From a candidate division FCPU426 bacterium (GTDB lineage: Bacteria > Oederibacteriota > Muellerivitia > Muellerivitales > Muellerivitaceae), in the NCBI GenBank assembly GCA_963771075.1, contig CAVYSE010000028.1, positions 96,001 to 160,000 on the forward strand: a stretch of DNA of 64,000 nucleotides. Reading direction: 5' to 3'. Made by a program: the position numbers and the translations under genes. The notes beneath the pieces were generated by a model, which saw only the letters and a program-made list of their open reading frames with translations, had not been told where the DNA came from and searched no databases. Below are positions 789 through 19,652 of this stretch, piece by piece. The stretch's first letter is position 1; every line of letters begins with the position of its first letter.

Positions 789-840
789 AAAAAAATTATA
801 TCAATTCACGCGCGGAACACGACAAAGAGAAAACGACGGC

Positions 841-3800
841 TTATTTCAAAAACAATAGCTTGGTTAAAAAACGCTGTCTTTTTGTGTCGACTACCACAAC
901 GTAATAAAGGCCATTGGCAATAAGATTGCCTTTTTCATCCTTCATGACGAAAGATGGATCGATACCCGGCTGGGCGTGGAAGGGAATATCAAGGATTTTC
1001 CTAAACGAGAGGGTAAACACCTGGATGGATCCATCCATTCCCATGGTTCCTGTTAATCGAATCGAAACCGGCTGCGTTCCATTTACCGGATTGGGATAAA
1101 GAACCGGGTTTAAAACCGGAATAGGGGTCGAGGTAATCGAGGGTGTCATCGTTCCGCCAGGGGTTGATGTAAAACTTGGGGTTTCTGTCCAAACGGTCGT
1201 CTGGGTGGGAGTTATTGTGGGAGTCCAAGAAGCCGTGACACTGAAGACCTGGGTTAATGTCGAGGTTGGGCTTAGAGTCGTTGTGGCAGTGGGTGAAGGA
1301 GTGGAAGTTGTTGTGTCCGAAAAAACTACCGTCGGGGTTCGGGTCAAGGTTGAGGTCGGACTAAAGGTCCGCGTCCCGGTGGGAGTTGCGCTCCACACAA
1401 GGGTGGGGGTTGCGCTGTTTGTGGGGAAAGCCGTTGAAGTCGGGGTAAATGTTGAGCTTGACGTCATGGTATAGTTTGGGGTCGGGCTTGGCGTGACGGT
1501 TCGAGTCGGGCTATAGGGGAGAGTCGCCGTGAGGCTTACCGTCGCGGTAGGGCTGATTACAATCGTTTGAGTCAGGGTGGAAGTTAGGGTGATTGTACAC
1601 GTTAAAGTGGGGGTCATGGTCAAACTGGGAGTATTGGTAAAACTCGTCGAAAAAGTAGGCGTCGTCGTTTGTGTCAGGGTCAAAGTTTTAGTCGAGGTAA
1701 AGCTAAACACCGGGGTTTGGGTCGCTATAGGGGTAGAAGAAGTTGTTCCAGTCGAGGTTGCAGTTGGAGTGCCCGTAAAACTGAATGTTGGAGTCGGGGT
1801 GTAGGTTTTTGAGAAAGTAAGGGAGGCGGTTGGGGTAAAGGAAGAAGTTGCCGTGATGGTCGTTGTGGGTGTCGAAGAACTCGTAGCACTCAAAATAGGG
1901 GTCATGGTTTGGGTAGGGGAAAGTGTCAGTGTTCCAGTCCCGGTAAGGGTTGCCGTGAATGAAAAAGTAGAGGTGCTAGTCGGGGTATTTGTCCTGGTTA
2001 GAGTCGTCGTAAAAATATTCGTAGGAGTGTTTGTGAATGAAATTGTTGGTGTTGGGGTCGTCGTCAAAACAAGGGTTTGTGTTTGGGTCGTTGTATAAGT
2101 CGATGTCCGGGTCGGGGTCGCTGAAACCGAGAGGGTGGGTGAAGGGGTGAGAGATACCGTGGGGGTAGGCGTGGATGAAAAGGTTGAGGTAAAGGTCGCC
2201 GTTGGACTGTAGGTACGGGTAAGCGTCTGGGTCAAGCTAAAGGTGGGAGTAGCGGTAGCGGTTAAGCCTAAAGTCGGCGTAACCGTGAATGTGGCGGTGG
2301 GGGTGGCCGTGGGTGGAACAATGGGAACAATGCCAATGGCCATGAGGGTGGCGATTTGTACCGACGCCGTTTCGTCCAATTCCAGGGTGCCGTTGGTAAC
2401 CGTGACCGCGAAGGTCTTATCGTCAGCGATATTTTTCCCCGTTCCGAAAGAGGGATAGAGGCTGGTCACGTCCTTGAAAATGTCGAAGTTGGGCAAAACT
2501 GTCACACCGTTCAAAACCACATTGAAGACCCGGTCTCCCGGGGCGGTGTAATAGGTTTCGGCATATTTTAAAGTGACGTCGTAGACCCGGTTGGGCAAAT
2601 TAAATAGGTAGGTCACCCCTCCAGCCGCCCGCTCCGTCATATAAAGGTAAGGGTCGGTCGTATTTGAAATGGGTCCCCCGCTTGAATAGGCGGTTCCAGC
2701 GGTATATCCCCAGTTTCCCGTCGTATAGGCGGTATCGGCCAGCCAGGTAATGGGACCATCGAGGGTCAGGGGGCCCGCACAATTAACGTAAAGCGCTGTA
2801 GCCATTGGGGTCGGTGTGTTGGTCGGTAAGGTGCCCGTGATGGTGGGTGTGAAGGTATTCGTAAAGGTCGAGGTACCCATGGCTGTGGGCGAAAGGGTGA
2901 GGGTGTTGGTGGGCGTGTTGGTCCATGTGTTGGTGACCGTCGGCGTGGGGGGCGTTTGAAGCCGGATAACTTGCATGGCGTTAACCTGGGATGTATCCAC
3001 CGTGGAGCTGAATACAACATCCAATCGGCCGGTGGTAACTTCCACCGTTGTGGGCACATCATAAACCGCATGCTCCCCCACCGTGGCCCAAACATCCAGG
3101 TTGGTCATTACGGGCGTTCCGGCCGCCACCACGCTAAAAACACGCCCGCCAAGGTGGGAATCACCATCATAGTTTTCGCAAAACTTGTATAGCACCTGGT
3201 AATAGCCGTTTGGAACCGTGAAATGATACGTGGGGTTTCCCCACCTTTCCGTTTGATAAAGAGGGGTTTGACCATTGACAGTGCCGGAAATGGCTTGCGT
3301 CGGATAAAGGGAGGTGGATCCCGTGGAGGCTGTGTCATAACCCCAACCGCCCGTGGTGTAGGGTTGGTCCGCCGCCCAAACCGCCCCCGCCGTGTCCGTA
3401 AACTGGGATACGGAGCCGTTGTCCACCCGGATAGTAAGGGGTGCATAGGCAGATAGGGTGGGGGTGGGGGTAGGGGAAACGTAAAGGTTATAATCCAGAA
3501 AATTGTCGGAGAGCATCAGTAATGACATTACGGTCCAGGACTCGTCATAATAGAATCCGCCCTGCAAGAGTTTGCTGCCAACCAGATCGGAATAGGTATT
3601 GTCGATATAGGCTTGGTAGGTCCGGCTCACCATCGCTCCACATCCCGCAGGGCCCACAAAAGCCGCCGATTGGCTGACCGGGCTCGGTCCCTCCGGCAAG
3701 ACGGGTGATTGCGGGTCCGGGGTGCCGTTTAACTTGTAGCCGTCCACGATGGAAACCGCGCCGATGGCTGAAAAGAAACTGCTGGTCAAAGACACATAGG

Positions 3801-4698
3801 CTTGGGACGAGGTATTTCCGAACCAAAGATAGTCCTGGACGATTCGAAAGGGAGTCCGGCAGGCGTCATACTGGTAATCAATGTAAGTCGTATTCACTGA
3901 ATTCTGGGAAACGCCGGCGTTATTGCACCAGGCCGAATCCAGCCCGTTGGAGGAGTTGCCGTAACCTTGATTCAGGTTGGCGTTGAGAATGGCATAGCAA
4001 TTGGCCGCCACGTTCAGCCAACCCGATTGAGTCGTCGCCGCGGCGAACTCCCGGTAATAGGCTGGGGCAAAATAGGATGGGTTGATCGCGCCGAAACCAT
4101 CTCCCGCGGTCAGGGTTTGCCCGGCGCTGTTCACATAGCCGTAAATCTTATTGATCTGGGAAACCGCCAAACTCAGGTAACTCCCCAGGGTGGAACTCGT
4201 TCCCCATTGCCGGACAGCCATTAACAGGCCCCAGGCCATATCCTCATCCGCGTCGGTCGCGGCTCCGCCTCCGTTCGGCCCCAAGGTCCCATCCGAATTG
4301 ATATACCAGTTCATCAAGCCGCTACCGTCCAAGTGTTTTTGCTCGTATTCCCAGAGGTTATCGAAAAGATTTTCATCATTCATGTAAACCGCGATGACCA
4401 TGCCATAGCCGATCCCCTCCGAGACAGTGGAATCGAGATTGAGTCCAGGCTCATTGGGTCTTTGAACGCGGAGGTAACCCGTGGAAGAATCCTTCACCAC
4501 ACAGTCCGTGTACCACTTCACATAGGCTTGGCTGACCGCCGCGTTGGAATAGATGGAGGAATGGAACCCGAAAGGGTTATCCCGGTTCTGGGGAAAGGGG
4601 AAATTCCCCGTGGTTCCATTTACATTTTGCGCCGGGAGAGGGGCGCTCACGCCCAAAAGGAAGACTATTCCAAATAAGGTGGATTTAATTCTTTTCAA
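841..4698 (-). CDS. Secreted GH8 glycoside hydrolase with two malectin-like domains, a long Thr/Ser/Pro-rich stalk and a C-terminal YPNP sorting-like domain
   Basis: Signal peptide; GH8 motifs TVSEGIGYGM, ATDADEDMA, YQYDACR; malectin-like LYQTERWG...RVFSV and LYMTER...FNLPN...RVFNVVLNG; ~400 aa of TPT repeats; C-terminus VLYPNPV...IANGLYYVVV. Confidence 0.9.
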   Translation of the reverse strand: MKRIKSTLFGIVFLLGVSAPLPAQNVNGTTGNFPFPQNRDNPFGFHSSIYSNAAVSQAYVKWYTDCVVKDSSTGYLRVQRPNEPGLNLDSTVSEGIGYGMVIAVYMNDENLFDNLWEYEQKHLDGSGLMNWYINSDGTLGPNGGGAATDADEDMAWGLLMAVRQWGTSSTLGSYLSLAVSQINKIYGYVNSAGQTLTAGDGFGAINPSYFAPAYYREFAAATTQSGWLNVAANCYAILNANLNQGYGNSSNGLDSAWCNNAGVSQNSVNTTYIDYQYDACRTPFRIVQDYLWFGNTSSQAYVSLTSSFFSAIGAVSIVDGYKLNGTPDPQSPVLPEGPSPVSQSAAFVGPAGCGAMVSRTYQAYIDNTYSDLVGSKLLQGGFYYDESWTVMSLLMLSDNFLDYNLYVSPTPTPTLSAYAPLTIRVDNGSVSQFTDTAGAVWAADQPYTTGGWGYDTASTGSTSLYPTQAISGTVNGQTPLYQTERWGNPTYHFTVPNGYYQVLYKFCENYDGDSHLGGRVFSVVAAGTPVMTNLDVWATVGEHAVYDVPTTVEVTTGRLDVVFSSTVDTSQVNAMQVIRLQTPPTPTVTNTWTNTPTNTLTLSPTAMGTSTFTNTFTPTITGTLPTNTPTPMATALYVNCAGPLTLDGPITWLADTAYTTGNWGYTAGTAYSSGGPISNTTDPYLYMTERAAGGVTYLFNLPNRVYDVTLKYAETYYTAPGDRVFNVVLNGVTVLPNFDIFKDVTSLYPSFGTGKNIADDKTFAVTVTNGTLELDETASVQIATLMAIGIVPIVPPTATPTATFTVTPTLGLTATATPTFSLTQTLTRTYSPTATFTSTFSSTPTPTVSLTPSPTLSVSATPTRTSTYTTTQTQTLVLTTTPTPTISFTNTPTNIFTTTLTRTNTPTSTSTFSFTATLTGTGTLTLSPTQTMTPILSATSSSTPTTTITATSSFTPTASLTFSKTYTPTPTFSFTGTPTATSTGTTSSTPIATQTPVFSFTSTKTLTLTQTTTPTFSTSFTNTPSLTMTPTLTCTITLTSTLTQTIVISPTATVSLTATLPYSPTRTVTPSPTPNYTMTSSSTFTPTSTAFPTNSATPTLVWSATPTGTRTFSPTSTLTRTPTVVFSDTTTSTPSPTATTTLSPTSTLTQVFSVTASWTPTITPTQTTVWTETPSFTSTPGGTMTPSITSTPIPVLNPVLYPNPVNGTQPVSIRLTGTMGMDGSIQVFTLSFRKILDIPFHAQPGIDPSFVMKDEKGNLIANGLYYVVVVDTKRQRFLTKLLFLK

Positions 4699-4874
4699 AT
4701 TCGGCCCTTAAACATTGATGAATCTTTCCAACAATGTTTAAAAAATATACCTCATCTTTAAAATTGAAAAAGGGCGATTCACAATAATTTCAAGTTTAAC
4801 GCATCATCCTTGTCAGTCTCATTGGCCTGGAATACGGGAGAAAGTAATTCATTATTGAACTTGGCCAAAATGAA

Positions 4875-6251
4875 TCATTTTTTCAACGTGGAAAGTTCCA
4901 CCCTTTTTGCCTCAGGAGAACCATTGAGAAACAACCCAAAGTAGCCCTCGTCCCCATTTTGGAACGCTTCCAGGACGTAATGGGTTTGAATCCCGCTCTT
5001 GAGGGCCCTGGAAAGCCAAACCAAACCTGACCGGAGAGGATAGAGCCTAAAAAAATTGGGGACGAGATCAAAAGATCTTTTCATGTAATCCCTGAAATCC
5101 GAATATTGGTAAGGTCCTACCGGGTCTGAAATCGTGGCCGCCACGGGTGAGTGGATATCCAAAAGCATCAAGTCCTCGATTCCCATTTCCAAGGCCAGCG
5201 GGACTAAAACGCTGGGTGGGGTGTAAAGGGTCCAGAGAAATCCTATCCGGCCTTGACGGTCCCTAAAAAGATAGGACCGCGCGATGTTGTCGTAAAAACC
5301 GCAAAAGGCATCGGGAAAAGCGTCCTTCCCTGGGTTCCCCTTCTCGATAACCATGAACCGGTTCTGGACAAAGGTTCGAATCTTATCCTTTTCCTGCAAG
5401 TTGGCGTAGGTTCCCATCGCCATCCGCCCACCCTCATAAAAAGCCAGAGTCGCGAGCTCGGGTTGGGGAGGAAGAAAAGGACGCCAATCGTACTGGAACC
5501 CGCCGTACCTTCGCTTTTCCGGGTCCTGATTCCACCAAACGAAATTATCCGATACGTCAAAAACGCCGTTGAAGAGGGCCAAGAGCCCTTGCGAATTTTG
5601 GACCAGGGCGTAATCATTTTTCAAAAGGCTTTTCTCATCCTCCCGCACCCCCGGGAGCCAACCAACTATATGTTTGCGGACCCCGCCCTTGAAGCGGATT
5701 TTGCCCGGGTAATAGACCAGTTGAACCCGGTTTTCGTCAAACGCCGAATAAAAAACCATTGCCCGTTCTTTCATGAGGTCCGCTTGTTGCCGGATCAAGG
5801 CCTTTGCTTTCGGTTTAAGAAAGGGTGTCGTTTCCACCTTCCGGAAATAATCGTCAAAAAGAACCCCTCCCCGGTCGTGGTATTTAACCGCGAAACAGGA
5901 GAGAGTCGCGGTCAACGGCGGAGAGACCGCCGTAAATTCAACGGCACTCGGGTAAAGGAAGGGAAACCCTTCTTTATTATCCTTCGCCTGCCTGGCCCAA
6001 TCGACCGCCAGTTTAAAGGGCCGCTCACCCGGCCCTAAAACCCGGGTCTTGGGCCAATGAAGTTTCGATAACGACTCATAAAGCCATTCACCGGATTTTC
6101 CATAGGCGTACTCCCGGACAGCGGAAACCTGTTTCCCTGCCGGTTCTTCCGAAAAAACTTGAGTCGCGAGGGTCAAGGCCGAAACCCAGAATATAAAACC
6201 GGGCATCAATGTTTTTGAATGGAGGGGGGAGACATTCTTGAAACCAAACAT
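4875..6251 (-). CDS. Exported protein, phosphodiester glycosidase (NAGPA/DUF2233)-like
   Basis: N-terminal hydrophobic segment; LLALFNGVF, LATLAFYEGGRMAMG, ARSYLFRD..GRI and MGIEDLMLLDIH resemble that family. Start abuts the stop of the upstream STAND gene. Confidence 0.55.
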   Translation of the reverse strand: MFGFKNVSPLHSKTLMPGFIFWVSALTLATQVFSEEPAGKQVSAVREYAYGKSGEWLYESLSKLHWPKTRVLGPGERPFKLAVDWARQAKDNKEGFPFLYPSAVEFTAVSPPLTATLSCFAVKYHDRGGVLFDDYFRKVETTPFLKPKAKALIRQQADLMKERAMVFYSAFDENRVQLVYYPGKIRFKGGVRKHIVGWLPGVREDEKSLLKNDYALVQNSQGLLALFNGVFDVSDNFVWWNQDPEKRRYGGFQYDWRPFLPPQPELATLAFYEGGRMAMGTYANLQEKDKIRTFVQNRFMVIEKGNPGKDAFPDAFCGFYDNIARSYLFRDRQGRIGFLWTLYTPPSVLVPLALEMGIEDLMLLDIHSPVAATISDPVGPYQYSDFRDYMKRSFDLVPNFFRLYPLRSGLVWLSRALKSGIQTHYVLEAFQNGDEGYFGLFLNGSPEAKRVELSTLKK

Positions 6252-9200
6252 TTATTTTTTCCGCCTCGCGCGGATTCTTTTGTTTTCTTTCACACCGCCG
6301 GCCTTTTTCGGGCCCCGCCGGCGGGCGTTTGAAAGCCAGTCATGTGCCACATCTTCGATATGGGCCGCCCGGGACCATTGGACCAGGTCGCGGACTTCCT
6401 GCGGGGGAAGCCGGGATTCCAATTGCTGGGCCAACCGGACGATCTTGTCCTTGGTCTCACGCCGGCAAGTGGGATGGTGGAGGGCGAGCGCCAGGAAAGC
6501 GAAGGCGTTTCGTTCATCCCCCAATAGTTTGGTGTACTTGGAAATCGTGACCATGGCGTCCACCAGTTGCGGGGTCAGGTTCGCGGTCAAGGCGCGGTCA
6601 AAAGCGTCCACCAAATAACGCCGGGCCTGGGAAGGCTGGTTACTTTCCAAACTTACTTCGGCCAGCGAAATCAACGCGACGACGATCCCCACCGTGTCCG
6701 TGTGGCGCTTGAACTGTTCCAGGGCGGACATCATATGGCGCCGCGCCGGGCTCCACTTCCCCTCCGCCAACAACAGCGCCCCCCGGTGGTAGGCGTACCA
6801 GGAAAGGTCCAGGGGCTTGACGCCTTCCCTTTCCTGGATTTGCCTTCCCCTTTCGTAAAAGACCCGGGCTTCCTCAAAACGGCGCTCGGCCACCGCCAGG
6901 TTCCCCAAAAGGTCCAGCGACCAAGTCTGTCCCCGGGGGTCTCCCACCAGGCTATAAAGGTCGAGTCCGGTCTTGGCGTGTTGGCTGGCGGATGTGTAGT
7001 CCCCAACAGCCCAAAGCACCCCCGCCAGAAGATTGTGCGACCACCCCATCGCCCGCTTATCCCCAAACTCGACGTGAAGTTTCAAGCCTTCCTTGTACAT
7101 CTCTCGGGCGCCCTCGAAATTTCCCACTGCCTCGATGGCCCTTCCCAGGTTATTGAAGGCCCAGGCCACCCCCTTCCGGTCCCCGCAGGCCACAAAAGCC
7201 GAGAGCCCTTTTTGATAGTAGTAACGGGCCCGCTCATAGTCGGCCAATTTATGGAGGATGTCGCCCATCAAATTGTAGGAATTGGCCGCCCCTCCCTGGG
7301 AACCGACCGATTCGTAATAGGCCATGGCCTTTCTCAGGAATTTTTGGCCTTCGAAATACTTTTCCAGGCTAAGGGCGATATGGCCCATGTTGTTGAACGC
7401 AAACGCCATACCCGCCTTGTCCCCCGCCTTTTGATAAAGCTGGTAGGCTCGCCGGTAATGGGGGAGAGCCTGGTCGTCGCGGCCCAGGGATTGAAGGACC
7501 AGTCCCAAGCCACAGTAGGGAAAAGCCAATTCCTTGCCCGCCCTTTCTTTTTTTAGGACCGCCAAGCAATCCTCGAGTATCTTCTTCGCCTTCTGAAGAT
7601 CGCCCATCCGTTGCATCAGGATCCCCCATCGGGCCATGAGTTTTCCCATCAGGATCTTGGTGGCCCGGGTGGCCTTCTTGCTCCGGTCCTTCGCGGCCAA
7701 AATTTCCACGGCGCCCTGGAAGGCTTCCACCCCCTCCTGGTACCACCCCTTGGTTTCGTAAAGCATGAATATAGAGTCCAGGTAATCGGCCATTCGGCTA
7801 TCGTTGCCTTGCTCCACCGCCCGTCGCCAACCTTCCCGGATGTTCCCGATCTCATCCGTCAGGTAGGCAAGGGCTTGTCCCTGCTTGGCGCCCCATAAAT
7901 TCTTTTCATTGCGCCGCAGTTCCCGGGCCAGGAAAGCGCTGTGGGCGTCCAGGATTTTGTCTTTTTCGGCATGGTCCTTGAAAAGTTTTTCCTTCGCATA
8001 AAATTTCAGGAGGTCATGGACTTCCAAATAGCCGTTGGGCATGGTCCGCACCAGGAACTTTTGGGCCAACTGCCCGAATATCGCCGGGGAAACCCCCGCC
8101 ACATGGGCCGCGGCTTTGGGGGTGAAGCCTCCCTTGAAGACCGAGCAGGCCCGCAAGGCCTTCTTTTGCCGCTCGTTCAAGAGGACCCAGGAATATTCAA
8201 AGACCGCCCGGAGGGATTGCTGGCGAGTGGGCAAATAGGGCATCTCGGCGGCCAAGAAATCGCGGTTGGACTCGATCTTGGCGGCTATCTCTTCCGGCGT
8301 CATGCTTTTGAGCCAGGTCGCCGAAAGCTCCAGCCCCAGGGGCATTCCCTCCAAAACGGCGCTTAACCGGCCGATGCCGATTTTTTCCTCTTCCTTAGGA
8401 TCCCATTCGGGCACCGTCCGTTGGGCGTGCTGAAGGAATAAACGCACCGAAGCGAAGTTCTCAGGATCGCCGGCATCTGGGCCCGTGGGATAGGAAAGCC
8501 CCTTGATTTCCATGACGATTTCCGTTTTGACCTTCAATCTTTCCCGGCTGGTGGCCAGGATGGATACTTGAGGAGCCTCTTGAAGGATGCGGGTTACGAG
8601 TTCGCCCCCTTCCAGCACATGTTCAAAATTGTCCATGATCAGCAGGATCCGCTTGTCGTTCAGGTAATTAAATAATTGCAGTTCCGAATCCTCGGCTCCG
8701 GTGAAAACAAATTTCAGGGCCTGGGCGATGCTCTCCACCATATACCGGGCCGAGGAGAGGGGCGCCAGCCCCACAAAATAAACCCCATCGGGAAAACGGG
8801 AGGTCATCCGGGCGGCGGCTTGAAGGGACAGTCGCGTCTTTCCAAATCCCCCGGGTCCCACCAGGGTGAGGAGCCGTTGGTCTGCCATCGCGAATGTTTG
8901 AATGATCCGTTCGGTTTCCTCTTCCCTACCTAAAAAAGGAACGTTTTGGGACGGCAAGTTTTGGGGAAAATTTTGGAGGGATTGAAGTGGAGGAATTTCA
9001 CCGGCGGACATCCCCTCGGGCTTTAACACAAAGAGGGTCTGGGGTTGCAAAAGGTCATTTAAGAGATGCGGCCCCATATTCTGAAGGACAAATCCGGCGG
9101 GAACCTCCAGCGAATCATGGGCCTTTTCGGTCAGGAGAACTTGCCCCGCGGGGCATGCATCCAGGAGGGCACGGGCGTGATCCAAGGCTGGTCCCAGGCC

Positions 9201-9518
9201 TTTACTCAGGATCCTTTCCGGGGGGGCGGCGTGAAGGGCCACCCTTAAATCGGCCGCTCCCACCCCTTCCCAGTCTCTTTCGATCAGGTCCTGCCTCAGT
9301 TTCAAGAGGGAGGGCAGGATGTTTCCCTTATCAAAATAAGCCCAAACTCCATTGGGAAAACGTCGAGACCAGGCGGCACCCTGTCGGTGAAACTCATCCT
9401 CCAGATGATAAAAAAGGGCCCCTTTCGCGAGTTCCATTTTCTCAAGGGAATAGTCATTCCGGTTGACCGGCTCGATTCGAGAGGTGAGGTATAGAGCCAA
9501 GGGGAGACTCCTAAGCAT
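6252..9518 (-). CDS. STAND/NB-ARC-like ATPase with degenerate N-terminal cyclase-like domain and C-terminal TPR array
   Basis: Walker A GPGGFGKT, Walker B ILLIMDNFEH, LEGMPLGLELSA, repeated A..NNLG TPR units; N-terminal LRVALH...GQVLLT. Confidence 0.9.
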   Translation of the reverse strand: MLRSLPLALYLTSRIEPVNRNDYSLEKMELAKGALFYHLEDEFHRQGAAWSRRFPNGVWAYFDKGNILPSLLKLRQDLIERDWEGVGAADLRVALHAAPPERILSKGLGPALDHARALLDACPAGQVLLTEKAHDSLEVPAGFVLQNMGPHLLNDLLQPQTLFVLKPEGMSAGEIPPLQSLQNFPQNLPSQNVPFLGREEETERIIQTFAMADQRLLTLVGPGGFGKTRLSLQAAARMTSRFPDGVYFVGLAPLSSARYMVESIAQALKFVFTGAEDSELQLFNYLNDKRILLIMDNFEHVLEGGELVTRILQEAPQVSILATSRERLKVKTEIVMEIKGLSYPTGPDAGDPENFASVRLFLQHAQRTVPEWDPKEEEKIGIGRLSAVLEGMPLGLELSATWLKSMTPEEIAAKIESNRDFLAAEMPYLPTRQQSLRAVFEYSWVLLNERQKKALRACSVFKGGFTPKAAAHVAGVSPAIFGQLAQKFLVRTMPNGYLEVHDLLKFYAKEKLFKDHAEKDKILDAHSAFLARELRRNEKNLWGAKQGQALAYLTDEIGNIREGWRRAVEQGNDSRMADYLDSIFMLYETKGWYQEGVEAFQGAVEILAAKDRSKKATRATKILMGKLMARWGILMQRMGDLQKAKKILEDCLAVLKKERAGKELAFPYCGLGLVLQSLGRDDQALPHYRRAYQLYQKAGDKAGMAFAFNNMGHIALSLEKYFEGQKFLRKAMAYYESVGSQGGAANSYNLMGDILHKLADYERARYYYQKGLSAFVACGDRKGVAWAFNNLGRAIEAVGNFEGAREMYKEGLKLHVEFGDKRAMGWSHNLLAGVLWAVGDYTSASQHAKTGLDLYSLVGDPRGQTWSLDLLGNLAVAERRFEEARVFYERGRQIQEREGVKPLDLSWYAYHRGALLLAEGKWSPARRHMMSALEQFKRHTDTVGIVVALISLAEVSLESNQPSQARRYLVDAFDRALTANLTPQLVDAMVTISKYTKLLGDERNAFAFLALALHHPTCRRETKDKIVRLAQQLESRLPPQEVRDLVQWSRAAHIEDVAHDWLSNARRRGPKKAGGVKENKRIRARRKK

Positions 9519-9630
9519 TGGGGGTAGGTCTACTATATTATTACAGGGCCATCCCGGTAGAAAGGCCAGGTCCTCGAATTCGTGATAGGCAAAACCACCA
9601 TTGGTTTCCTGGCCAGAAACGAGTTCCCGA

Positions 9631-10050
9631 TCAGGCCGCCCTTTGATTTAAACCAATTAGCAAAAGGCTTGGACCTGGCTTACTAGCTACGAAACAACCG
9701 ATTCCCAATCGCCTAATGAGGTTTGACGAAAAGGGTCGCAGGGAGATGACCTGGTCATAAAGTTTGAGGGCTTCGGAAACTCTTCCCAGACTGGTCAAAC
9801 CGTTCGCGCAATTCAAAAGGGCCATGGGTTGGCTTGGCTCGAGCTTCAGGGATTTGCCCAGCATCCGGACACCCGCTTCCCTATCCCCCTGTTGAAGGAG
9901 GATGGTTCCCAAATGGGTTAAAAGCAGGGTGTTTTGTGGGAAGAAATTCAGCAGTTCCTTCATCTGTTGGGCGGCTTCCACCAACTTTCCCGCTTGGTGC
10001 AAAGCGATCGCTTGGCGGATTCGGGGATCTTGGGGGTGGGTATGTTTCAC
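9631..10050 (-). pseudogene. TPR protein, probably 3'-truncated
   Basis: About three TPR units (AIALHQAGKLVEA, HLGTILLQQG, NCANGLTSLGRVSEAL); the TPR pattern stops abruptly after ...VISLRP. Confidence 0.55.
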
Positions 10051-10193
10051 GCGCTGACTTCAGCCTCGCTATGGATAAGGCCCACCCTTCGAAACCGCCC
10101 CAATGACATTCGGAGCGATTCAAACTTTCGTGGGAATGGGGGTGCTTTCTTCATTCGATTTTAAGGGAAATTTTCGCCGAGATGCCTTAAAAC

Positions 10194-11561
10194 ATGAGAA
10201 GAATGAAAAGCGTGAATGGCTCTAACAAATATCTTTTTTTAGGTCTTTTTCTTCTTCTCTTCGTTTTGCGCACGGCCTTCGGCTTGAGCGACGAATTCAT
10301 GGAAAACGACCGTCTTCAAACCTACCTGATCGGTTTGAAATGGTATTGTACGGGCGATTGGCCTTATTTCGGGCCCGACCTGGTTTTCTTGAGCACCCTG
10401 CGGGGCCAGATTCCCGGGGCCTTGGAATCTTTCGTCGTGGGCGGGCCCTTCTTCGTCCTTCCCATCCCCGAAGCTCCCTTTCTTTTCCTCAATCTCCTTT
10501 CCCTTTCTTCCATTGCCCTTTTGAGCTGGTATCTTTCCAAGCGGATCTTATCCATCCCTTTCCTTTTCATCTTCGCCTGGATTTCCCTCCTCCCCTGGAC
10601 CCTGAACCAATCCACCTGGGTTTTGAACCCGAGTTACCTGCTTTTCGGAAGCGTGATCTTTTCCATTGGGCTAATGGAAGCCATTCCCGCCCTTTCCATC
10701 CAATTCCTGAAACCCGCCCAGGCCCTGGCCTGGATGGGATTCGGGCTCTGTTGGGACATGCAGTTTCATTTTTCGTGGATACTATTGGCGCCCTATGTGC
10801 CCATCGCGCTTTTGTTATATAGCCGGAAGGCGGGTTGGGGCCAGGTCCCGAAGCTTTTGTTTTATTTCGGCTTGGGCGCCCTGGTACCCGGGTCCTTGAT
10901 CCTTCCGACCCTGATTCGCTACGGCTGGCACTGCCTTTTTACAGGCGAAAGCACCTTCATTCTTTTCAACTTGGATCATGCCCTGTCCTTTTTTACCATG
11001 TTGGCCCGCTACCTTTCCCTGGCCTGTTACGAGATTCCCCGTTTTGTCGGGAACCACACAAGCGACCGATGGGAGTTCCTGACGGTAAAGGACCCCTGGT
11101 TGTTCCCCTTCGCGATGTTTCTGCTCCTCGTGGGATGGATCCAGCCCCTTGTGATGCTATGGAAGGGAGGCATTCAACCTCTTCTTTCCCTCCCAAAGCG
11201 AATCCCGAATGGCGGTCGCCCGGGTGAGATGCCGGTTTTATGGCTCGCTTGGTCCGCGTTTTTCTTGTATTACATCAGTTTTTGGTTCACTCAAAAGGAA
11301 CCCTTCGCCCATATCGCTTACGTCTATTTCCCTATCGTGACCGTCTTCTCTTTTTATATCTGGGACCGGTTCACCCCCCAACCCTTTTGGAGGAAATTCG
11401 GGGTCCTTTGCCTGACGGCCGGTTTCTTTTTACAAACGGGACTAACGCTCTATTGGATCCCCCGGCGGTCCCTTTACCTCAACCGAAACCAGGTGGTCCA
11501 ATCCATCCAAGAGAAAAATTACCACATTCTGGGCGAGCGCAGGCCCGGCGCCCTTTATTAA
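10194..11561 (+). CDS. Polytopic membrane protein (possibly GT-C-like), paralogue A
   Basis: 455 aa with many TM segments; paralogue at 18285-19652. Confidence 0.8.
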   Translation: MRRMKSVNGSNKYLFLGLFLLLFVLRTAFGLSDEFMENDRLQTYLIGLKWYCTGDWPYFGPDLVFLSTLRGQIPGALESFVVGGPFFVLPIPEAPFLFLNLLSLSSIALLSWYLSKRILSIPFLFIFAWISLLPWTLNQSTWVLNPSYLLFGSVIFSIGLMEAIPALSIQFLKPAQALAWMGFGLCWDMQFHFSWILLAPYVPIALLLYSRKAGWGQVPKLLFYFGLGALVPGSLILPTLIRYGWHCLFTGESTFILFNLDHALSFFTMLARYLSLACYEIPRFVGNHTSDRWEFLTVKDPWLFPFAMFLLLVGWIQPLVMLWKGGIQPLLSLPKRIPNGGRPGEMPVLWLAWSAFFLYYISFWFTQKEPFAHIAYVYFPIVTVFSFYIWDRFTPQPFWRKFGVLCLTAGFFLQTGLTLYWIPRRSLYLNRNQVVQSIQEKNYHILGERRPGALY

Positions 11562-11582
11562 GAACCGCGAACAAATACCTAA

Positions 11583-11670
11583 TTTCGCCACAGAAACGCG
11601 GAGATACAGTTAAGAATTTGTAACCCCCCAAAAATGAACAAGATTTAAAAACTGTGCCTCTGTGGTGAAA
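11583..11670. repeat. Intergenic palindromic repeat
   Basis: Imperfect inverted arms TTTCGCCACAGAAAC ... GCCTCTGTGGTGAAA. Confidence 0.55.
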
Positions 11671-11698
11671 GGGGTCTTGTTACTGTCTTTTAACCAAG

Positions 11699-11977
11699 AT
11701 GAGCCGGATCATTTATTCCCTGTATAAGGACTATTCGACAGGGCGTTATTCTCTCGCTGAAATAACTAAGAGGTACTGGAATAAAGGGTTGGTGGTCCGG
11801 AAAAGCAAAAAGATTCTTTCCAAGAGTACGGTTTATAAAATTCTAACTAACCGGATGTATACGGGGGTGTTCCAATGGAGAGATATAAATTACCGGGGTA
11901 AGTACAAGCCTATCATTCCGCAAAAACTTTGGGATAAAACCCAGAAGGTAATGGAAAAACACTTCAAGTTAAGATAA
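11699..11977 (+). pseudogene. Isolated 'recombinase' DNA-binding domain of a large serine recombinase (catalytic domain absent)
   Basis: YSTGRYSLAEI...LSKSTVYKILTNRMYTG...YRGKYKPIIPQKLWDKTQ matches the PF07508-type pattern. An in-frame TGA at 11666-11668 excludes an upstream catalytic domain. Confidence 0.8.
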
Positions 11978-11991
11978 TCAGTAGTACTGAG

Positions 11992-12019
11992 TGTTCCTTT
12001 TGGGTCCCCGTCGCGGACA
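11992..12019 (+). repeat. 28-bp putative recombination site 1
   Basis: TGTTCCTTTTGGG-TC-CCCGTCGCGGACA; right arm conserved, left arm degenerate; 14 bp after the recombinase-domain stop. Confidence 0.75.
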
Positions 12020-12046
12020 GCCCGTTTGGACTAGATTTACAATTCC

Positions 12047-12322
12047 CTAGGACGTTTCATTTACTCTAAGACCCTTAAGTTTCACGGCAACCGACTTCAA
12101 TATTTCAGGCCGGGGATAGTTATAGACGCCTATCACTTTCTCTATACTGGCTAAATGATTGACGACTTGATCAATCGACTTATTTTTCAAAATTATTTTT
12201 ATAATTCCCGGGATATAAACGTCATATTCATCATGAGCATTCGGCTGATCTGAAACTCCGATTGGATCCCAATCACGAATTAAAATTTCATGTATTTTTT
12301 TAAATAATTCTTCGTTTTTCAT
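12047..12322 (-). CDS. Small AT-rich protein, DUF1871-like (cassette gene 1)
   Basis: MKNEELF...DWDPIGV...DEYDVY; fills most of the interval between sites 1 and 2. Confidence 0.75.
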   Translation of the reverse strand: MKNEELFKKIHEILIRDWDPIGVSDQPNAHDEYDVYIPGIIKIILKNKSIDQVVNHLASIEKVIGVYNYPRPEILKSVAVKLKGLRVNETS

Positions 12323-12351
12323 TTCATACTCTTGCTTTTTATTTCCGAGCA

Positions 12352-12379
12352 TGTCCAATGCGGGTCCCCGTCGTGGACA
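12352..12379 (+). repeat. 28-bp putative recombination site 2
   Basis: TGTCCAATGCGGG-TC-CCCGTCGTGGACA. Confidence 0.8.
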
Positions 12380-12397
12380 GCTTTAAAACCCAACTTT

Positions 12398-12745
12398 TTA
12401 ATACTTCCTGTGACAACTTGAACATTTATTTAAGTGACCAGAAACAGCCTTTAATATCCAATACGAAACATTCCAATTGAGCCTTTTCCCACAGTGGGGA
12501 CAAGCAAAACGGACCATTGGCCAGAAGCCAAGAAACATGAGTACTGCGAAACAAATTTCCAAGCAAATAGAAGTCGGATCGCTTTTCAACATTGAGCTTG
12601 GGAAGTGTTTTGAAAAAGAATAAATCAATAAAAATAAGATGCCCATTGTAGCAAAAAACCAAACTACAGTTTTTCGAACATTAGCCAAAGTCGCTTTTCG
12701 TACGGAGAGCATTTCTAATAAGATGAATTTAGAGCGATTCGCCAT
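12398..12745 (-). CDS. Small 2-TM protein with C-terminal zinc ribbon (cassette gene 2)
   Basis: Two hydrophobic segments, then CPHC...CSSC; RBS-like GAAAGGTG before the ATG; AT-rich. Confidence 0.7.
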   Translation of the reverse strand: MANRSKFILLEMLSVRKATLANVRKTVVWFFATMGILFLLIYSFSKHFPSSMLKSDPTSICLEICFAVLMFLGFWPMVRFACPHCGKRLNWNVSYWILKAVSGHLNKCSSCHRKY

Positions 12746-12767
12746 TGGTCACCTTTCTAAAATCTAT

Positions 12768-12795
12768 TGTCCACGACGGGTCCCCGTCGTGGACA
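12768..12795 (+). repeat. 28-bp putative recombination site 3 (perfect palindrome)
   Basis: TGTCCACGACGGG-TC-CCCGTCGTGGACA: perfect 13-bp inverted arms around a TC dinucleotide. Confidence 0.85.
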
Positions 12796-12852
12796 CCTAA
12801 AACCCTTAATAAACTCTATTTTATCCTTTTTGTCGAAATGACGGCAGAATAC

Positions 12853-12878
12853 TTGACATAATGTCTCATATATGAGAC
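12853..12878 (+). promoter_or_regulatory. Likely TA promoter -35 box and autoregulatory operator
   Basis: TTGACA at 12853-12858, then the perfect 16-bp palindrome GTCTCATATATGAGAC (12863-12878) just before the toxin start. Confidence 0.65.
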
Positions 12879-12887
12879 TTTTATTAA

Positions 12888-13205
12888 GTGATATCAACAC
12901 TGCCACAATGCGTGAAAGAGATCGCAGAATTCCCCCAAGATGTACGGGAAGATCTCGCCGACGCTTTAGCACGATTGGATGAAGGTCACACGCTTTCCAT
13001 GCCCCTGTCCCGGCCGATGCCTTCAATTGGAAAGGGTGTACATGAATTGAGATTCAGGGATCGTGCAGGAATTTATCGGGTGATCTATATTTTGGTTGGC
13101 GCGGGAATCATTTATTTGGTTCATGCATTTGTGAAAAAAGACAAGAAGACGCCGATGCCGAATATTGATTTGGCGAAAAGACGCTTAAAGGAAGTGAAAA
13201 GATGA
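12888..13205 (+). CDS. Type II toxin, RelE/ParE (HigB/Gp49-like) family
   Basis: MPLSRPMPSIGKGVHELR...GIYRVIY...LVHAFVKK..KTP; toxin-first order with an ATGA overlap. Confidence 0.9.
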   Translation: MISTLPQCVKEIAEFPQDVREDLADALARLDEGHTLSMPLSRPMPSIGKGVHELRFRDRAGIYRVIYILVGAGIIYLVHAFVKKDKKTPMPNIDLAKRRLKEVKR

Positions 13206-13489
13206 AACATAAAAGTACGGCGGTTGAAATTGCGAAATTGGTAGGTATTTCTCCAGCGAGAGGAATGGAGGCTATTATCAAAGCACAACTGATAACAGCT
13301 GTTTTGCAAGCCATTCAAGTTAAGAAAATGACTCATCAGGAACTCGCTAAGCGCGCAAAGCTCCCCAGGAGCGCCGTGACGGGTATTCTTTCTGGCAGTT
13401 TGCAGAAGGTCACCATTGATCGAGTTCTGAGACTCATTGAAGCGGCGGGTCTTATCGCGGAGATTCGAATCAGAAAATCTGCCGCCTAA
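13202..13489 (+). CDS. XRE-family HTH antitoxin
   Basis: MTHQELAKRAKLPRSAVTGILSG...TIDRVL HTH; translationally coupled to the toxin. Confidence 0.88.
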   Translation: MKHKSTAVEIAKLVGISPARGMEAIIKAQLITAVLQAIQVKKMTHQELAKRAKLPRSAVTGILSGSLQKVTIDRVLRLIEAAGLIAEIRIRKSAA

Positions 13490-13623
13490 AGAAAGTTCTG
13501 GGGGAACATTACCGAATAAAAACAAAGATAGCATGTATGGGCCAGCGACCTGCGTAGTAGCTTGATCAATAGTAGCTGATCAAAAACGCGGGTTGCTCCT
13601 GTTAAGGAGCCTGAACATTGGGG

Positions 13624-13895
13624 TCACCTATGAAAAAGAATGTCCAGGCAAAAGCGTAGTATCACGGCCCCAAGTCCAACCTGAGTCTCAAAGGACTACA
13701 AGTCAGTCACCTATTCGCGGTTGTTTCACCGCACGATAACGTTGGACCCGGCCGCTCAATCACCTATGAAAAAGAATGTCCAGGCAAAAGCGTAGTATCA
13801 CGGCCCCAAGTCCAACCTGAGTCTCAAAGGACTACAAGTCAGTCACCTATTCGCGGTTGTTTCACCGCACGATAACGTTGGACCCGGCCGCTCAA
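13624..13895 (-). repeat. Perfect tandem duplication, 2 x 136 bp, in the IS 3' non-coding region
   Basis: 13624-13759 and 13760-13895 are identical by inspection; TCA continues at 13896-13898. Confidence 0.95.
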
Positions 13896-13953
13896 TCAGG
13901 CCAAGGACCTCAACTCTTGCGGGTTGTGTCAGACCCCGTCGGAGCTGGCCGGG
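13805..13953 (-). ncRNA. Predicted bridge/seek RNA of the IS1111 element
   Basis: Two stem-closed loops. Target loop guides GGGGTC and TTGGCCTGA match the flanks GACC-TGA-CCCC. Donor loop guides GTTATC and ATAGGTGA match the junction ATAGG-TGA-TAAC. Boundaries approximate. Confidence 0.75.
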
Positions 13954-14951
13954 CAGTCCTCAAAAGCTTCCTTCTTTCGTAACATATGAAAGATGCTTTT
14001 CAGCATAGCCCTTGCTACTGCTATTCGTCCCGCGTTATTCCCATGCTTCTTCTTCACCCTCGTGTATAAGGTCCCATACCGTCGGGTTTTGCGAATGGCA
14101 TGAAGCGAGTTCTCAACCAATATCCAGCGAATCCATTTAGAACCCTGTTTGGTGATGTGGCCGTTGTGGCTTTTTCCCCCTGATGCGTGAACACTGGGGA
14201 CCAATCCACCATAAGAACATAGATGTTCCGCGTCCGGGAACCGGCGAATATCCCCAATCTCGCTCAAAATTAATAAAGCCGAAAAGGCACCCACGCCTGG
14301 CATGGTCATCATCAGCTGGGCTTCCGGGCTTTCTGCTGCCATTTTCTTGATCACCTCTTCTGATTTGGCGATCTCTTGGCCTAGTTCCCGGATTACTTCC
14401 ATATATCCGTCCAGTTCCAAACGGTAGCAAGGCCGGGTACCTACCGTGGCAAGTTCGCGGAAGTTCTTTATTCCGAATCGGTTTTTAGTAACGGGTTCGA
14501 TTCCCGCCTTGGTCATGACCGAAGTCATCCGGTTTTTGGCTTGTGTTCTCAATTGCACCAGGGAAGCCCGGTACCTAAGGATTTCCCGTAAGTCGCGGAT
14601 CTCTCGGGGTGGCACATAGGCTCGTGGCAGCAGATCCACCCGCAAAAGTTGAGCCAGGATTCCCGAATCAATTTTATCCGTCTTGATCTTGGCCGAGGCT
14701 ATGGCTTTGACCTTTTGGGGGTGGGCCAATACCAGGTTGGGGAATCGATCCTCGATGAGTTCGTAAAAGTGATACCAATGACCTGTGGCTTCTACTACGA
14801 CCTGGCTACTCACGGGTTGCTTCTTGAAATAAGCCTTTAAAGTATCCGCGTCGTTCTTCAGATCGACTTGTTCCAGCACCTTTCCTTTCTCATTCACTCT
14901 CGTGACGTAGGATGTTTTCTGGTGTAGGTCTACTCCGATATACTGTCCCAC
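13929..14951 (-). CDS. IS110-family DEDD transposase/recombinase
   Basis: IGVDLH, VVVEATG, KIKTDKIDS, MPGVG, YGGLVPSVHASGG, GHITKQG; RBS AGGAGG upstream of GTG. Confidence 0.97.
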   Translation of the reverse strand: MGQYIGVDLHQKTSYVTRVNEKGKVLEQVDLKNDADTLKAYFKKQPVSSQVVVEATGHWYHFYELIEDRFPNLVLAHPQKVKAIASAKIKTDKIDSGILAQLLRVDLLPRAYVPPREIRDLREILRYRASLVQLRTQAKNRMTSVMTKAGIEPVTKNRFGIKNFRELATVGTRPCYRLELDGYMEVIRELGQEIAKSEEVIKKMAAESPEAQLMMTMPGVGAFSALLILSEIGDIRRFPDAEHLCSYGGLVPSVHASGGKSHNGHITKQGSKWIRWILVENSLHAIRKTRRYGTLYTRVKKKHGNNAGRIAVARAMLKSIFHMLRKKEAFEDCPASSDGV

Positions 14952-18033: not shown

Positions 18034-18216
18034 GATCTTCTGTGCGAGTTTTTTGTCTTCCCTGATCCTCTTCTTCATCGTCAACCATCGATTTCCCACC
18101 GCGCTGGCCCCAACCCCCATTCGTTCTCCTATAATCCTGGAACTAAGCCCCGCTTTCTTCTTCAACGCATATATCGCTACATCCCTCGCTTCCGATCGCC
18201 TTTTCCCGGCTTTCAC
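18022..18216 (-). pseudogene. DnaA-C-like HTH tail of a REP-associated (Y1) transposase, fragment
   Basis: ARDVAIYALKKKAGLSSRIIGERMGVGASAV; flanked by TGGCCCC motifs at 18006-18012 (minus) and 18231-18237 (plus). Confidence 0.6.
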
Positions 18217-18284
18217 ATGCTATCTTTATTTGGCCCCTTTATTTTGGTTAATTTTTAGTCGTTCCCATTAAAATTCATTAAAAT

Positions 18285-19652
18285 TTGAGGCGCATGAAAA
18301 ACACATCCCTATCCCCTGAAATTTCCTTTGTAAGCCTCTTCCTCTTTCTTTTTGTGTTTCGAACGCTTTTCGGCTTGAGCGGTGATTTTATGGATCCGGA
18401 TCACCTTCAAACTTTCCTGATCGGTTTGAAATGGTTCACCGAGGGAGGATGGCCATATTTTGGGCCGGATTTGGTCGTTCAGGGAGCCCTGCGGGGCCAG
18501 ATTCCCGGGGCCTTGGAATCTTTCGTCGTGGGCGGGCCCTTCTTCGTCCTTCCCATCCCCGAAGCTCCCTTTCTTTTCCTTAATCTCCTTTCCCTTTCTT
18601 CCATTTCCCTTTTGAGCTGGTATCTTTCCAAGCGGATCTTATCCATCCCTTTCCTTTTCATCTTCGCCTGGATTTCCCTCCTCCCCTGGACCCTGAACCA
18701 ATCCACCTGGGTTTTGAACCCGAGTTACCTGCTTTTCGGAAGCGTGATCTTTTCCATTGGGCTAATGGAAGCCATTCCCGCCCTTTCCATCCAATTCCTG
18801 AAACCCGCCCAAGCCCTGGCCTGGATGGGATTCGGGCTCTGTTGGGATATGCAGTTTCATTTTTCGTGGATACTGTTGGCGCCCTATGTGCCCATCGCGC
18901 TTTTGTTATATAGCCGAAAGGCGGGTTGGGGCCAGGTCCCGAGGCTTTTGTTTTATTTCGCCTTGGGCGCCCTGGTGCCCGGGTCCTTGATCCTTCCGAC
19001 CCTGATTCGCTACGGCTGGCATAGCCTATGGATCGGCGGCAGTACGACCGTTCTTTTTAACGCCAATCATGCCCGTGATTTTTTAACTATCCTGGCCCGT
19101 TATCTTTCCCTTGCCTGTTATGAGATCCCCCAGTTCATCGGCGGCCACACGAGCGAGCGTTGGGAGTTCATTACCCGTACGGCTCCATGGTTGTTCCCCT
19201 TCGCGATCTTTCTGCTCCTCGTGGGATGGATTCAGCCGTTCGTCATGTTGTGGAAGGGCTGGGTCCAACCCCTGGTCTACTTAAAAAGGAGGGGCCCGGA
19301 TAGCCTTCGATCGGGCGAGGGCCCGGTGTACCTATTAGCCGGATCGGCTCTCCTTTTTCTTTACTTGAGCTTTTGGTTTACGGAAAAGGAACCTGTTTCC
19401 CATATCGCTTACGTCTATTTCCCCATCGTGACCGTCTTCTCTTTATATATCTGGGACGGATTCGCCCCCCAGTCCTTTTGGAGGAAATTCGGGGTCCTTT
19501 GCCTGGCGGCCAGTCTTTTCTTCCAGGGCGGGGTGATGATGGACCGGTTGCCCCGCCAGTCCCTCTACCTAAACCGGAGCCAGGCGGTAAATGCCATTCA
19601 GGGAAATAACTTTCATTTACTGGGGGAGCGCAGGCCGGGTAGCCGAAATTAA
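18285..19652 (+). CDS. Polytopic membrane protein (possibly GT-C-like), paralogue B
   Basis: 455 aa, colinear with 10194-11561 at an offset of 8091 bp. Confidence 0.8.
   Translation: MRRMKNTSLSPEISFVSLFLFLFVFRTLFGLSGDFMDPDHLQTFLIGLKWFTEGGWPYFGPDLVVQGALRGQIPGALESFVVGGPFFVLPIPEAPFLFLNLLSLSSISLLSWYLSKRILSIPFLFIFAWISLLPWTLNQSTWVLNPSYLLFGSVIFSIGLMEAIPALSIQFLKPAQALAWMGFGLCWDMQFHFSWILLAPYVPIALLLYSRKAGWGQVPRLLFYFALGALVPGSLILPTLIRYGWHSLWIGGSTTVLFNANHARDFLTILARYLSLACYEIPQFIGGHTSERWEFITRTAPWLFPFAIFLLLVGWIQPFVMLWKGWVQPLVYLKRRGPDSLRSGEGPVYLLAGSALLFLYLSFWFTEKEPVSHIAYVYFPIVTVFSLYIWDGFAPQSFWRKFGVLCLAASLFFQGGVMMDRLPRQSLYLNRSQAVNAIQGNNFHLLGERRPGSRN

Follow-up and report, generated by a model that had tools for sequence, protein, structure and literature searches.

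The 64-kb stretch of DNA analysed here (the window) contains the 3' end of a serine recombinase gene, followed by three copies of a 28-bp site with small genes lying between and behind them (Table 1). The genome holding the window is called G000, with C numbers for its contigs and L numbers for fetched loci. An earlier note on this DNA had described three co-oriented sites at 11992, 12352 and 12768, spaced 360 and 416 bp, with one AT-rich gene on the minus strand in each interval. This arrangement is present: each interval holds a single minus-strand ORF of 36–37% GC, compared to 54% in the window. The recombinase domain ends 14 bp before site 1, as had been noticed, and its remnant matches PF07508 at 11699–11977 (E 6.6e-12). 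Site 3, which had been called a perfect palindrome, has perfect 13-bp arms but an asymmetric TC core and is not one. A search for its pattern with up to three mismatches recovers sites 2 and 3, while site 1 is found with the profile only; the pattern search gave no match in any of 100 dinucleotide shuffles of the window. No Rfam families were found between 10000 and 20000.

The first cargo gene had been placed 30 bp from site 2. This holds for the start codon ATG 12322 but not for TTG 12358 or ATG 12352, which overlap the site. For its product there is a weak lead to a DUF1871-like cluster, below the Atlas recognition threshold, and no second copy of unit A was found among the fetched loci or family genomes. 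The second cargo gene probably encodes a small membrane protein with a zinc ribbon, the zinc-ribbon matches being sub-threshold. The toxin-antitoxin (TA) pair behind site 3 is what it had been taken for, and it is also a third cassette which has lost its closing site: unit C is 92% identical in G020 from site 3 to 13518, where the G020 copy has a site about 20 bp further on and the window, at 13519, has other DNA in its place. The palindrome upstream of the TA genes may be an operator, judging from the autoregulation of type II TA systems. The homologues of unit C in G020 and G014 end in a match of 35–39 bp to the recombinase 3' end plus a site. The 13-bp palindrome in front of site 1, or a near copy of it, is located behind recombinase ends in G000, G004, G021 and G044 but is missing at the G024 head and at the intact G004 head.

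Table 1. Features of the array, in window positions
Feature	Position	Strand	Remarks
3' remnant of recombinase gene (recombinase domain only, 92-aa ORF from 11699), catalytic half lost	11694..11977	+	PF07508; ~96% DNA identity to three other copies
13-bp palindrome TCAGTA-G-TACTGA	11978..11990	.	between recombinase stop codon and head site
Site 1 (head site)	11992..12019	+	left arm TGTTCCTTTTGGG, platform-specific; TC core 12005-12006; right arm cassette-type
Unit A, 360 bp core to core	12005..12364	.	bounded by sites 1 and 2
Cargo gene 1, ~91-103 aa depending on start	12047..12358	-	no Pfam or PADLOC family
Site 2, core 12365-12366	12352..12379	+	pattern and profile search
Unit B, 416 bp core to core	12365..12780	.	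letter-identical copy in G024 (different genus)
Cargo gene 2, 115 aa, unnamed family	12398..12745	-	hydrophobic stretches, two CxxC pairs
Site 3, consensus site, perfect 13-bp arms, core 12781-12782	12768..12795	+	pattern and profile search
Unit C, toxin-antitoxin cassette	12781..13518	.	closing site missing in G000
Operator-like palindrome upstream of TA genes	12863..12878	.	putative
Gp49 (RelE-like) toxin	12888..13205	+	PF05973, E 8.9e-22
HTH_37 antitoxin	13202..13489	+	PF13744, E 1.2e-10
Decayed copy of last codons of recombinase gene, end of unit C	13492..13518	+	match by eye from alignment

Some further features of the window surround the array. A pair of 17-bp inverted repeats (13520–13536 and 18215–18231) encloses 4.7 kb with an IS110 gene, a ParB-like membrane gene and an IS200-like tail, and the left repeat coincides with the point at which the TA cassette is cut off. 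The IS110 gene (13624–13895 and 13929–14951) has six further full-length identical copies in G000, and its 136-bp end is tandemly duplicated in the window. The array and its neighbours lie between two paralogous genes for 455-aa membrane proteins without a Pfam family (10194–11561 and 18285–19652, 8,091 bp apart), which in some stretches reach 94% identity.

Distribution of the site and exchange of units

A profile scan of G000 yielded 92 sites at ≥22 bits and 102 at ≥17 bits, compared to none and two, respectively, in one block-shuffled control. The 102 sites form 16 clusters of 2–14 sites and 11 lone sites. With one mismatch allowed, the site pattern was found in 21 of 24 genomes of the same family, in the one genome of the same order and in none of 15 others; an exact 18-mer of the site occurs in 24 of 30 same-family genomes, again in the one of the same order, and in none of 67 outside the order. 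The motif is hence present genome-wide in G000 and family-wide. At least 135 stretches matched in a metagenome scan; viral contigs gave no match to the 18-bp site. In the same-order genome, G025, which is the only genome of a sister family, there is a single site (L133:6083), and on another contig a full-length recombinase of the tRNA type.

For a comparison of the units we used 525 sites from 14 genomes. G000 was covered completely and the 13 others by 80 stretches selected for their known sites, so that the counts for the latter are partial. Neighbouring sites within 6 kb are co-oriented in 405 cases and opposed in 11. The median unit length is 838 bp, and 213 of the 304 units of ≤1.5 kb contain one ORF. 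Whole units recur in 56 pairs (≥90% of length, ≥80% identity), which form clusters and are not independent; the orientation is the same in all of them and in 52 the flanks are unrelated on both sides. Gene content between sites thus is not fixed across genomes. The clearest case comes from the window itself: unit B together with site 3 (12365–12795) occurs in G024, where identity begins exactly at the TC core and both flanks are unrelated. Over the 444 nt compared, mismatches are restricted to positions 5, 7, 9, 12 and 13 of the upstream site. In G024 this unit is the first one after an intact recombinase about 74% identical to that of G000. An HflX-type GTPase gene was also seen as a cassette (L294:3078-4391), with a 90% identical match in G002 (L117) between different neighbours.

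The assembled contigs of four sequencing runs contained no circle junctions, and none of the runs listed as containing this DNA was of RNA. Two candidates from these contigs were not counted as evidence: a joint of 12021 and 12767 in one run, whose short side has only 29 letters and may be a repeat artefact, and a loose end behind site 1 in another run, which is the unit at G000:C5:87663.

Conservation is confined to the 28 bp, with an information content of ≤0.5 bits outside, and the TC core is found in 498 of 525 sites. To locate the exchange, sites sharing one flank only (95% over 80 nt) were compared after removal of the 24 sites which abut an intron. Where only the left flank is shared, left arms are identical in 19 of 20 pairs (background 6.7%) and right arms in 8 of 20; these pairs are not independent, six of the 20 coming from four head sites of one genome. 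Where only the right flank is shared, 2 of 18 pairs have identical left arms and 12 have identical right arms (background 24%). The right arms of the other six differ, four of them at position 19, which may be due to later mutation or conversion. Variants at positions 12–13 move with the left flank and the variant at position 18 moves with the right flank; thus, the crossover is bracketed to positions 14–17. Two or more changes at positions 11–13 occur in 20 of the 525 sites, 17 of these with TC intact, and two or more at positions 16–18 in two sites only. Changes at 11–13 with TC kept would fit a 2-bp overlap. The arms show no co-variation (positions 10/19, Fisher p 0.81) and their complementarity is that of random re-pairing, as expected if they are re-assorted halves of a duplex site and not a folded strand. 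Consensus sites fold strongly (site 3, z −5.1), whereas sites 1 and 2 have z values of −0.13 and −1.53 against shuffles. The geometry of the 28 bp is 13-2-13, but 11-6-11 can also be read. From these comparisons it is almost certain that the cassettes are mobile and are exchanged at the centre of the site.

The cargo was surveyed in 110 of the 120 ORFs called in the arrays of G000, leaving out ten short opposite-strand, overlapping or duplicate calls. No Pfam family was assigned to 48 of them, about 23 are TA components by manual reading, and the remainder includes acetyltransferases, reductases, regulators, transposases and intron maturases. PADLOC detected no convincing defence system among 113 proteins, the five matches being generic RT, HTH or repeat proteins or weak, and therefore an anti-phage role is unsupported by known families. 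The main (longest) ORF lies on the strand opposite to the site and the recombinase in 285 of 298 short units. Main ORFs start at a median of 45 bp from the next site and point towards the recombinase 3' end, so that no promoter logic of the integron type is evident. Predicted promoters are not in excess in the window (6 vs 3.5 ± 1.8), and there was neither a clear signal in or beside the site nor a clear positional −10 peak.

A near-identical group II intron of 2 kb (RVT_1 and GIIM, 529 aa) abuts the edge of a site, in either orientation; 12 such cases are from G000 and another 12 from five further genomes (for instance, G000:C3:170575-173315 and C5:77994-90331). IS110 and IS200-like genes are present in arrays as well. 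At G000:C26:137587-144453, near a contig end, part of an array is duplicated in inverted form around an intron end, possibly an assembly artefact.

Short serine recombinases and the origin of the site

G000 has four recombinase 3' ends with 97–98% protein identity to that of the window, one of which belongs to an intact gene (G000:C8:80002-80835), a 277-aa ORF with PF00239 and PF07508. The window copy is a 5'-truncated version of this gene. Each of the four ends is followed by the same left arm, identical to that of site 1, and then by a different unit, the right flanks being unrelated.

All 19 database proteins of this clade are 275–283 aa long, lack PF13408 and are 68–96% identical, and the stop codons of the short clade were confirmed in DNA. 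Longer relatives reach at most about 60% identity and mostly carry PF13408. A quick tree with 79 rows unites the short proteins in a single clade (SH-aLRT 99). The catalytic residues R18, S20, D89, R90 and R93 are invariant in 20 of 20 sequences, and dN/dS is 0.03–0.16 in the 11 of 15 short-clade pairs for which dS was computable, which indicates that the clade is under purifying selection. A structure model, of moderate confidence by pLDDT (67; pTM 0.44), matches SprA, Bxb1 and LI integrase. Only distant recombinases were found in a plasmid collection (all 138 records <60%, the ten listed 28–32%), and a profile search of representatives gave no second short clade that could be placed in its DNA context.

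A site follows thirteen recombinase ends in six genomes, all from this one clade; for one of these ends (L157) the link is no more than a short match. The 13 first units behind them are all different, at most 41% alike over 80 nt. The link to serine recombinases expected in the earlier note is thereby borne out, but the enzyme beside the arrays is a short natural variant of the large serine recombinases, not one of full length. A full co-oriented site lies 8–34 bp past the stop codon of four of the six intact genes; the other two have a half site at +36 (G020) and an inverted site about 110 bp on (L231). By comparison, none of the 17 loci of other relatives holds a site. The intact short gene occurs in only 5 of 31 family genomes, and no PF07508 was detected in the site-rich genomes G002, G003, G008, G018 and G041 (15–38 sites; 89–99% complete). 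These genomes appear to parallel CALINs, but would leave room for another enzyme.

The possibility that the recombinase gene is itself a cassette was rejected, as there is no site within 18–20 kb upstream in four of five genomes. In G004, ordinary-looking chromosomal genes lie upstream of the intact recombinase. Three loci (L301, L074 and L102) have a conserved stretch of about 280 bp (75–85% identity) some 250–800 bp upstream of the recombinase start; in some loci it occurs twice, near the start of a divergent upstream gene. Behind the intact recombinase of G000 the first unit is a 90-bp one without a gene (L005:2313-2430, corresponding to G000:C8:80850-80967), and it reads like the free-form tail of full-length relatives.

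The protein tails of the relatives bear on the origin of the site. A W-[LRYGVAM]-[PRGAE] motif close to the C-terminus is present in 96 of 120 full-length relatives; most such tails continue as a tRNA read in reverse (WLPGPDSNQ type), and tRNA-like tails are visible in the DNA. Sisters of the short clade end in WLPVMD (P0145, the nearest full-length relative, known from the protein sequence alone and with no relatives among viral contigs) or WLPIPNDLRT (P0121, P0126). Read in the same frame, the site gives WVPVVD or WVPIMD, close to these tails. The earlier note had read WVPVAD and RVPVVD from the window and compared them with recombinase C-termini; this reading is out of frame with the recombinase ORF. 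Seven sites, with window site 2 counted twice through its G024 copy, continue as D-x-[FLY]-[RK]-[TN], where the null gives 1.2 on average and at most 5; one of them is the head site belonging to the intact recombinase of G000 (WVPVVDKFRTL). Those DNA tails of full-length relatives which could be read scored much lower than true sites, with 1.4 bits as the best right-part score. Judged by these tails, the site probably descends from an attachment site in the 3' end of a tRNA-targeting full-length ancestor, a derivation which does not cover the left arm. Att scars, offered earlier as an alternative to gene capture, would thus probably be the source of the site and not a competing explanation.

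Proposed mechanism and its alternatives

We propose that the 28-bp site (two 13-bp arms around TC) joins mobile gene cassettes and is recombined as double-stranded DNA. A dimer of the short recombinase (catalytic plus recombinase domain, 275–283 aa) would bind it with one subunit per arm, cut around TC and swap the half-sites. All sites would be near-equivalent to this enzyme, presumably because it has lost the zinc ribbon and the coiled coil which enforce the directionality of attP x attB. Units would become excised as circles and, more rarely, inserted at another site, head site included, and the asymmetric core would hold sites and genes in one orientation. The recombinase gene would travel with mobile-element genes (ArdC, RadC), leaving arrays and truncated copies behind. 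The window would then hold an array left without its own enzyme, which contig C8 could serve in trans, and the intact 277-aa copy is a possible source for the catalytic domain which the earlier note had supposed to be supplied in trans. We consider it likely that the short serine recombinase is the enzyme and works in this way. The idea of gene capture driven by a serine recombinase, with which that note began, is supported as an interpretation, the catalysis being deduced from sequence.

The weak step in this scheme is integration. For the Listeria integrase, PMC3783163 gives a contact area of 13 bp for the recombinase domain, and the arms of our site have the same length. According to the same text, this integrase without its coiled coil excises with any pair of sites but does not integrate between molecules, and its binding drops about 25-fold when the zinc domain is deleted. 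It is therefore plausible that the short enzyme excises, whereas insertion by such an architecture would need adaptation or a helper, neither of which was found. Integration is the step against which the literature argues, though the comparative data require it of some enzyme. The difficulty would disappear if integration were rare, if a helper existed or if other changes compensated.

Among the alternatives, the one that survives best assumes that larger elements with a serine recombinase, full-length or short, inserted serially and decayed to remnants bounded by att sites, comparable to CIME or SCC elements. The single-gene units would be end products with no circulating pool, and exchange would be due to full-length relatives. 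A route of accretion is described in PMC5704250. In the closest full-length relatives the gene stops at the 3' end of a tRNA and the protein has a W-L-P tail; the sister P0145 ends in WLPVMD. Mobile-element genes lie upstream of the intact gene, ArdC in three of five genomes (G000, G020, G044) and RadC in two (G020, G044). Of the 13 head sites, 8 stand behind a truncated recombinase end and one more behind a frameshifted copy, and not only the TA units of G014 and G020 but also a unit of G002 end in a remnant of the recombinase end. However, such a remnant is on the left of only 13 of the 525 sites. The sites of G000 lie at 27 separate places, none of which adjoins a tRNA (the nearest, a lone site, is 1,444 bp away), and no array was found beside any of the 46 tRNA genes checked. 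Furthermore, G000 has no full-length PF07508 gene and the loci of full-length relatives are without a site. Since small units recur whole across genera with exact site-to-site ends, independent decay is disfavoured, and we regard this explanation as unlikely.

It is clearly less probable still that another enzyme, for instance a host tyrosine recombinase acting on the 11-6-11 reading (dif/pdif geometry), moves the cassettes with the serine recombinase as a passenger. The 6-bp spacer of tyrosine recombinases normally must match between partners. The identical unit B stands behind a head site differing at positions 12–13, and such variants are found in 20 sites, although by inspection the 11-6-11 geometry fits and the crossover window lies inside that spacer. 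The site presumably has no likeness to dif. None of the eight PF00589 genes of G000 is located within about 26 kb of a site, whereas the 3' end of the serine gene abuts a site 13 times. Moreover, the sites here are direct, whereas pdif modules are flanked by inversely oriented sites according to a title cited in PMC9771954. The existence of site-rich genomes without a serine enzyme would be in line with such an enzyme. Hardly credible, finally, is a REP-like palindrome or single-strand hairpin (terminator, transposase target), with genes shuffled incidentally by homologous recombination, by insertion sequences or by the group II intron: the strong folding of consensus sites, the intron at 24 of 525 sites and the IS110 and IS200-like genes in arrays would agree with it, but sites 1 and 2 fold little or no better than shuffles, the arms re-pair at random without co-variation, and neither strict co-orientation nor exchange at the centre of a site is expected of REPs.

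Comparison with known systems

If the short serine recombinase is indeed the enzyme, the arrays share features with several described systems. In pdif modules of Acinetobacter plasmids, short sites also bound exchangeable gene modules without IntI; theirs are, however, located on plasmids and served by XerCD tyrosine recombinases, with inverse sites and a spacer of ≥6 bp (PMC9771954).

CIME accretion (PMC5704250) and SCC islands (PMC5397144) resemble the arrays in their recombinase-less units bounded by att sites, in direct stacking and in a recombinase encoded elsewhere. Composite SCC islands also use serine recombinases (CcrAB/CcrC; PMC5397144). An enzyme of the Ccr family was not found here, scores being 60 of 700 bits for CcrA and 74 of 900 bits for CcrB and thus below the cut-offs. 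While CIME and SCC are decayed multi-gene elements stacked at one chromosomal target, here single-gene units are distributed among many loci, the enzyme is truncated and no host target gene is evident. Decay of a recombinase-bearing element may plausibly have produced the TA unit as well as the truncated platforms, but it is not evident as the origin of most units.

With the large serine integrases (Listeria LI/A118, Bxb1, phiC31, SPbeta SprA) the short enzyme has the catalytic and recombinase domains, the invariant catalytic residues and the inverted arms around a dinucleotide in common (PMC3783163, PMC5499577). It differs in the lack of zinc ribbon and coiled coil, in using one type of 28-bp site in tens of copies as against a pair of attP and attB of 40–50 bp, and in moving other genes, not a prophage. 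Being the natural version of a deletion which cripples the model integrases, it directly tests the need for the two missing domains. With 277 aa and a site of 28 bp, such a recombinase would also make a compact engineering tool.

The closest parallel is to integrons and CALINs. Gene capture by integrons, the textbook case, depends on IntI and attC. As described in bioRxiv 10.1101/2024.07.02.601686, integrons and CALINs likewise have arrays of small co-oriented cassettes, many with TA genes or of unknown function; a platform site is located next to the recombinase gene, some arrays are orphans lacking the enzyme, and the sites are the target of a group II intron. The cassettes found here, too, are small and mobile, and mostly carry a single gene. 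The head sites are a candidate for the analogue of attI, 13 of them having 13 different first units, a diversity from which we do not derive a preference for the head site. The differences are equally clear: a serine recombinase takes the place of the tyrosine recombinase IntI; the site is a fixed 28 bp with exchange at its centre and re-assorted arms, in contrast to attC folded as a single strand; the head site follows the 3' end of the gene and the cassette genes point to it, with no evident promoter Pc reading into the array; and there are many arrays per genome. IntI (TIGR02249) did not exceed the cut-off in any of five site-rich genomes (best 79 of 265 bits), nor in any of 14 controls, which means that this search had no positive control. 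The system works like an integron but fails with regard to IntI, attC and Pc, and it is not an integron. No earlier description of it was found in a literature search covering largely journals outside subscription, without supplements. A search based on attC would presumably miss these arrays, so that such gene pools would go uncounted. We lean, with some reserve, towards the view that loss of the zinc ribbon and coiled coil from a tRNA-targeting large serine integrase, together with conversion of its internal att site into a symmetric 28-bp site, gave rise to a minimal bidirectional recombinase capturing, storing and trading single-gene cassettes throughout the family, which would be an independent instance of the integron principle, brought about by a natural Cre-like serine recombinase.
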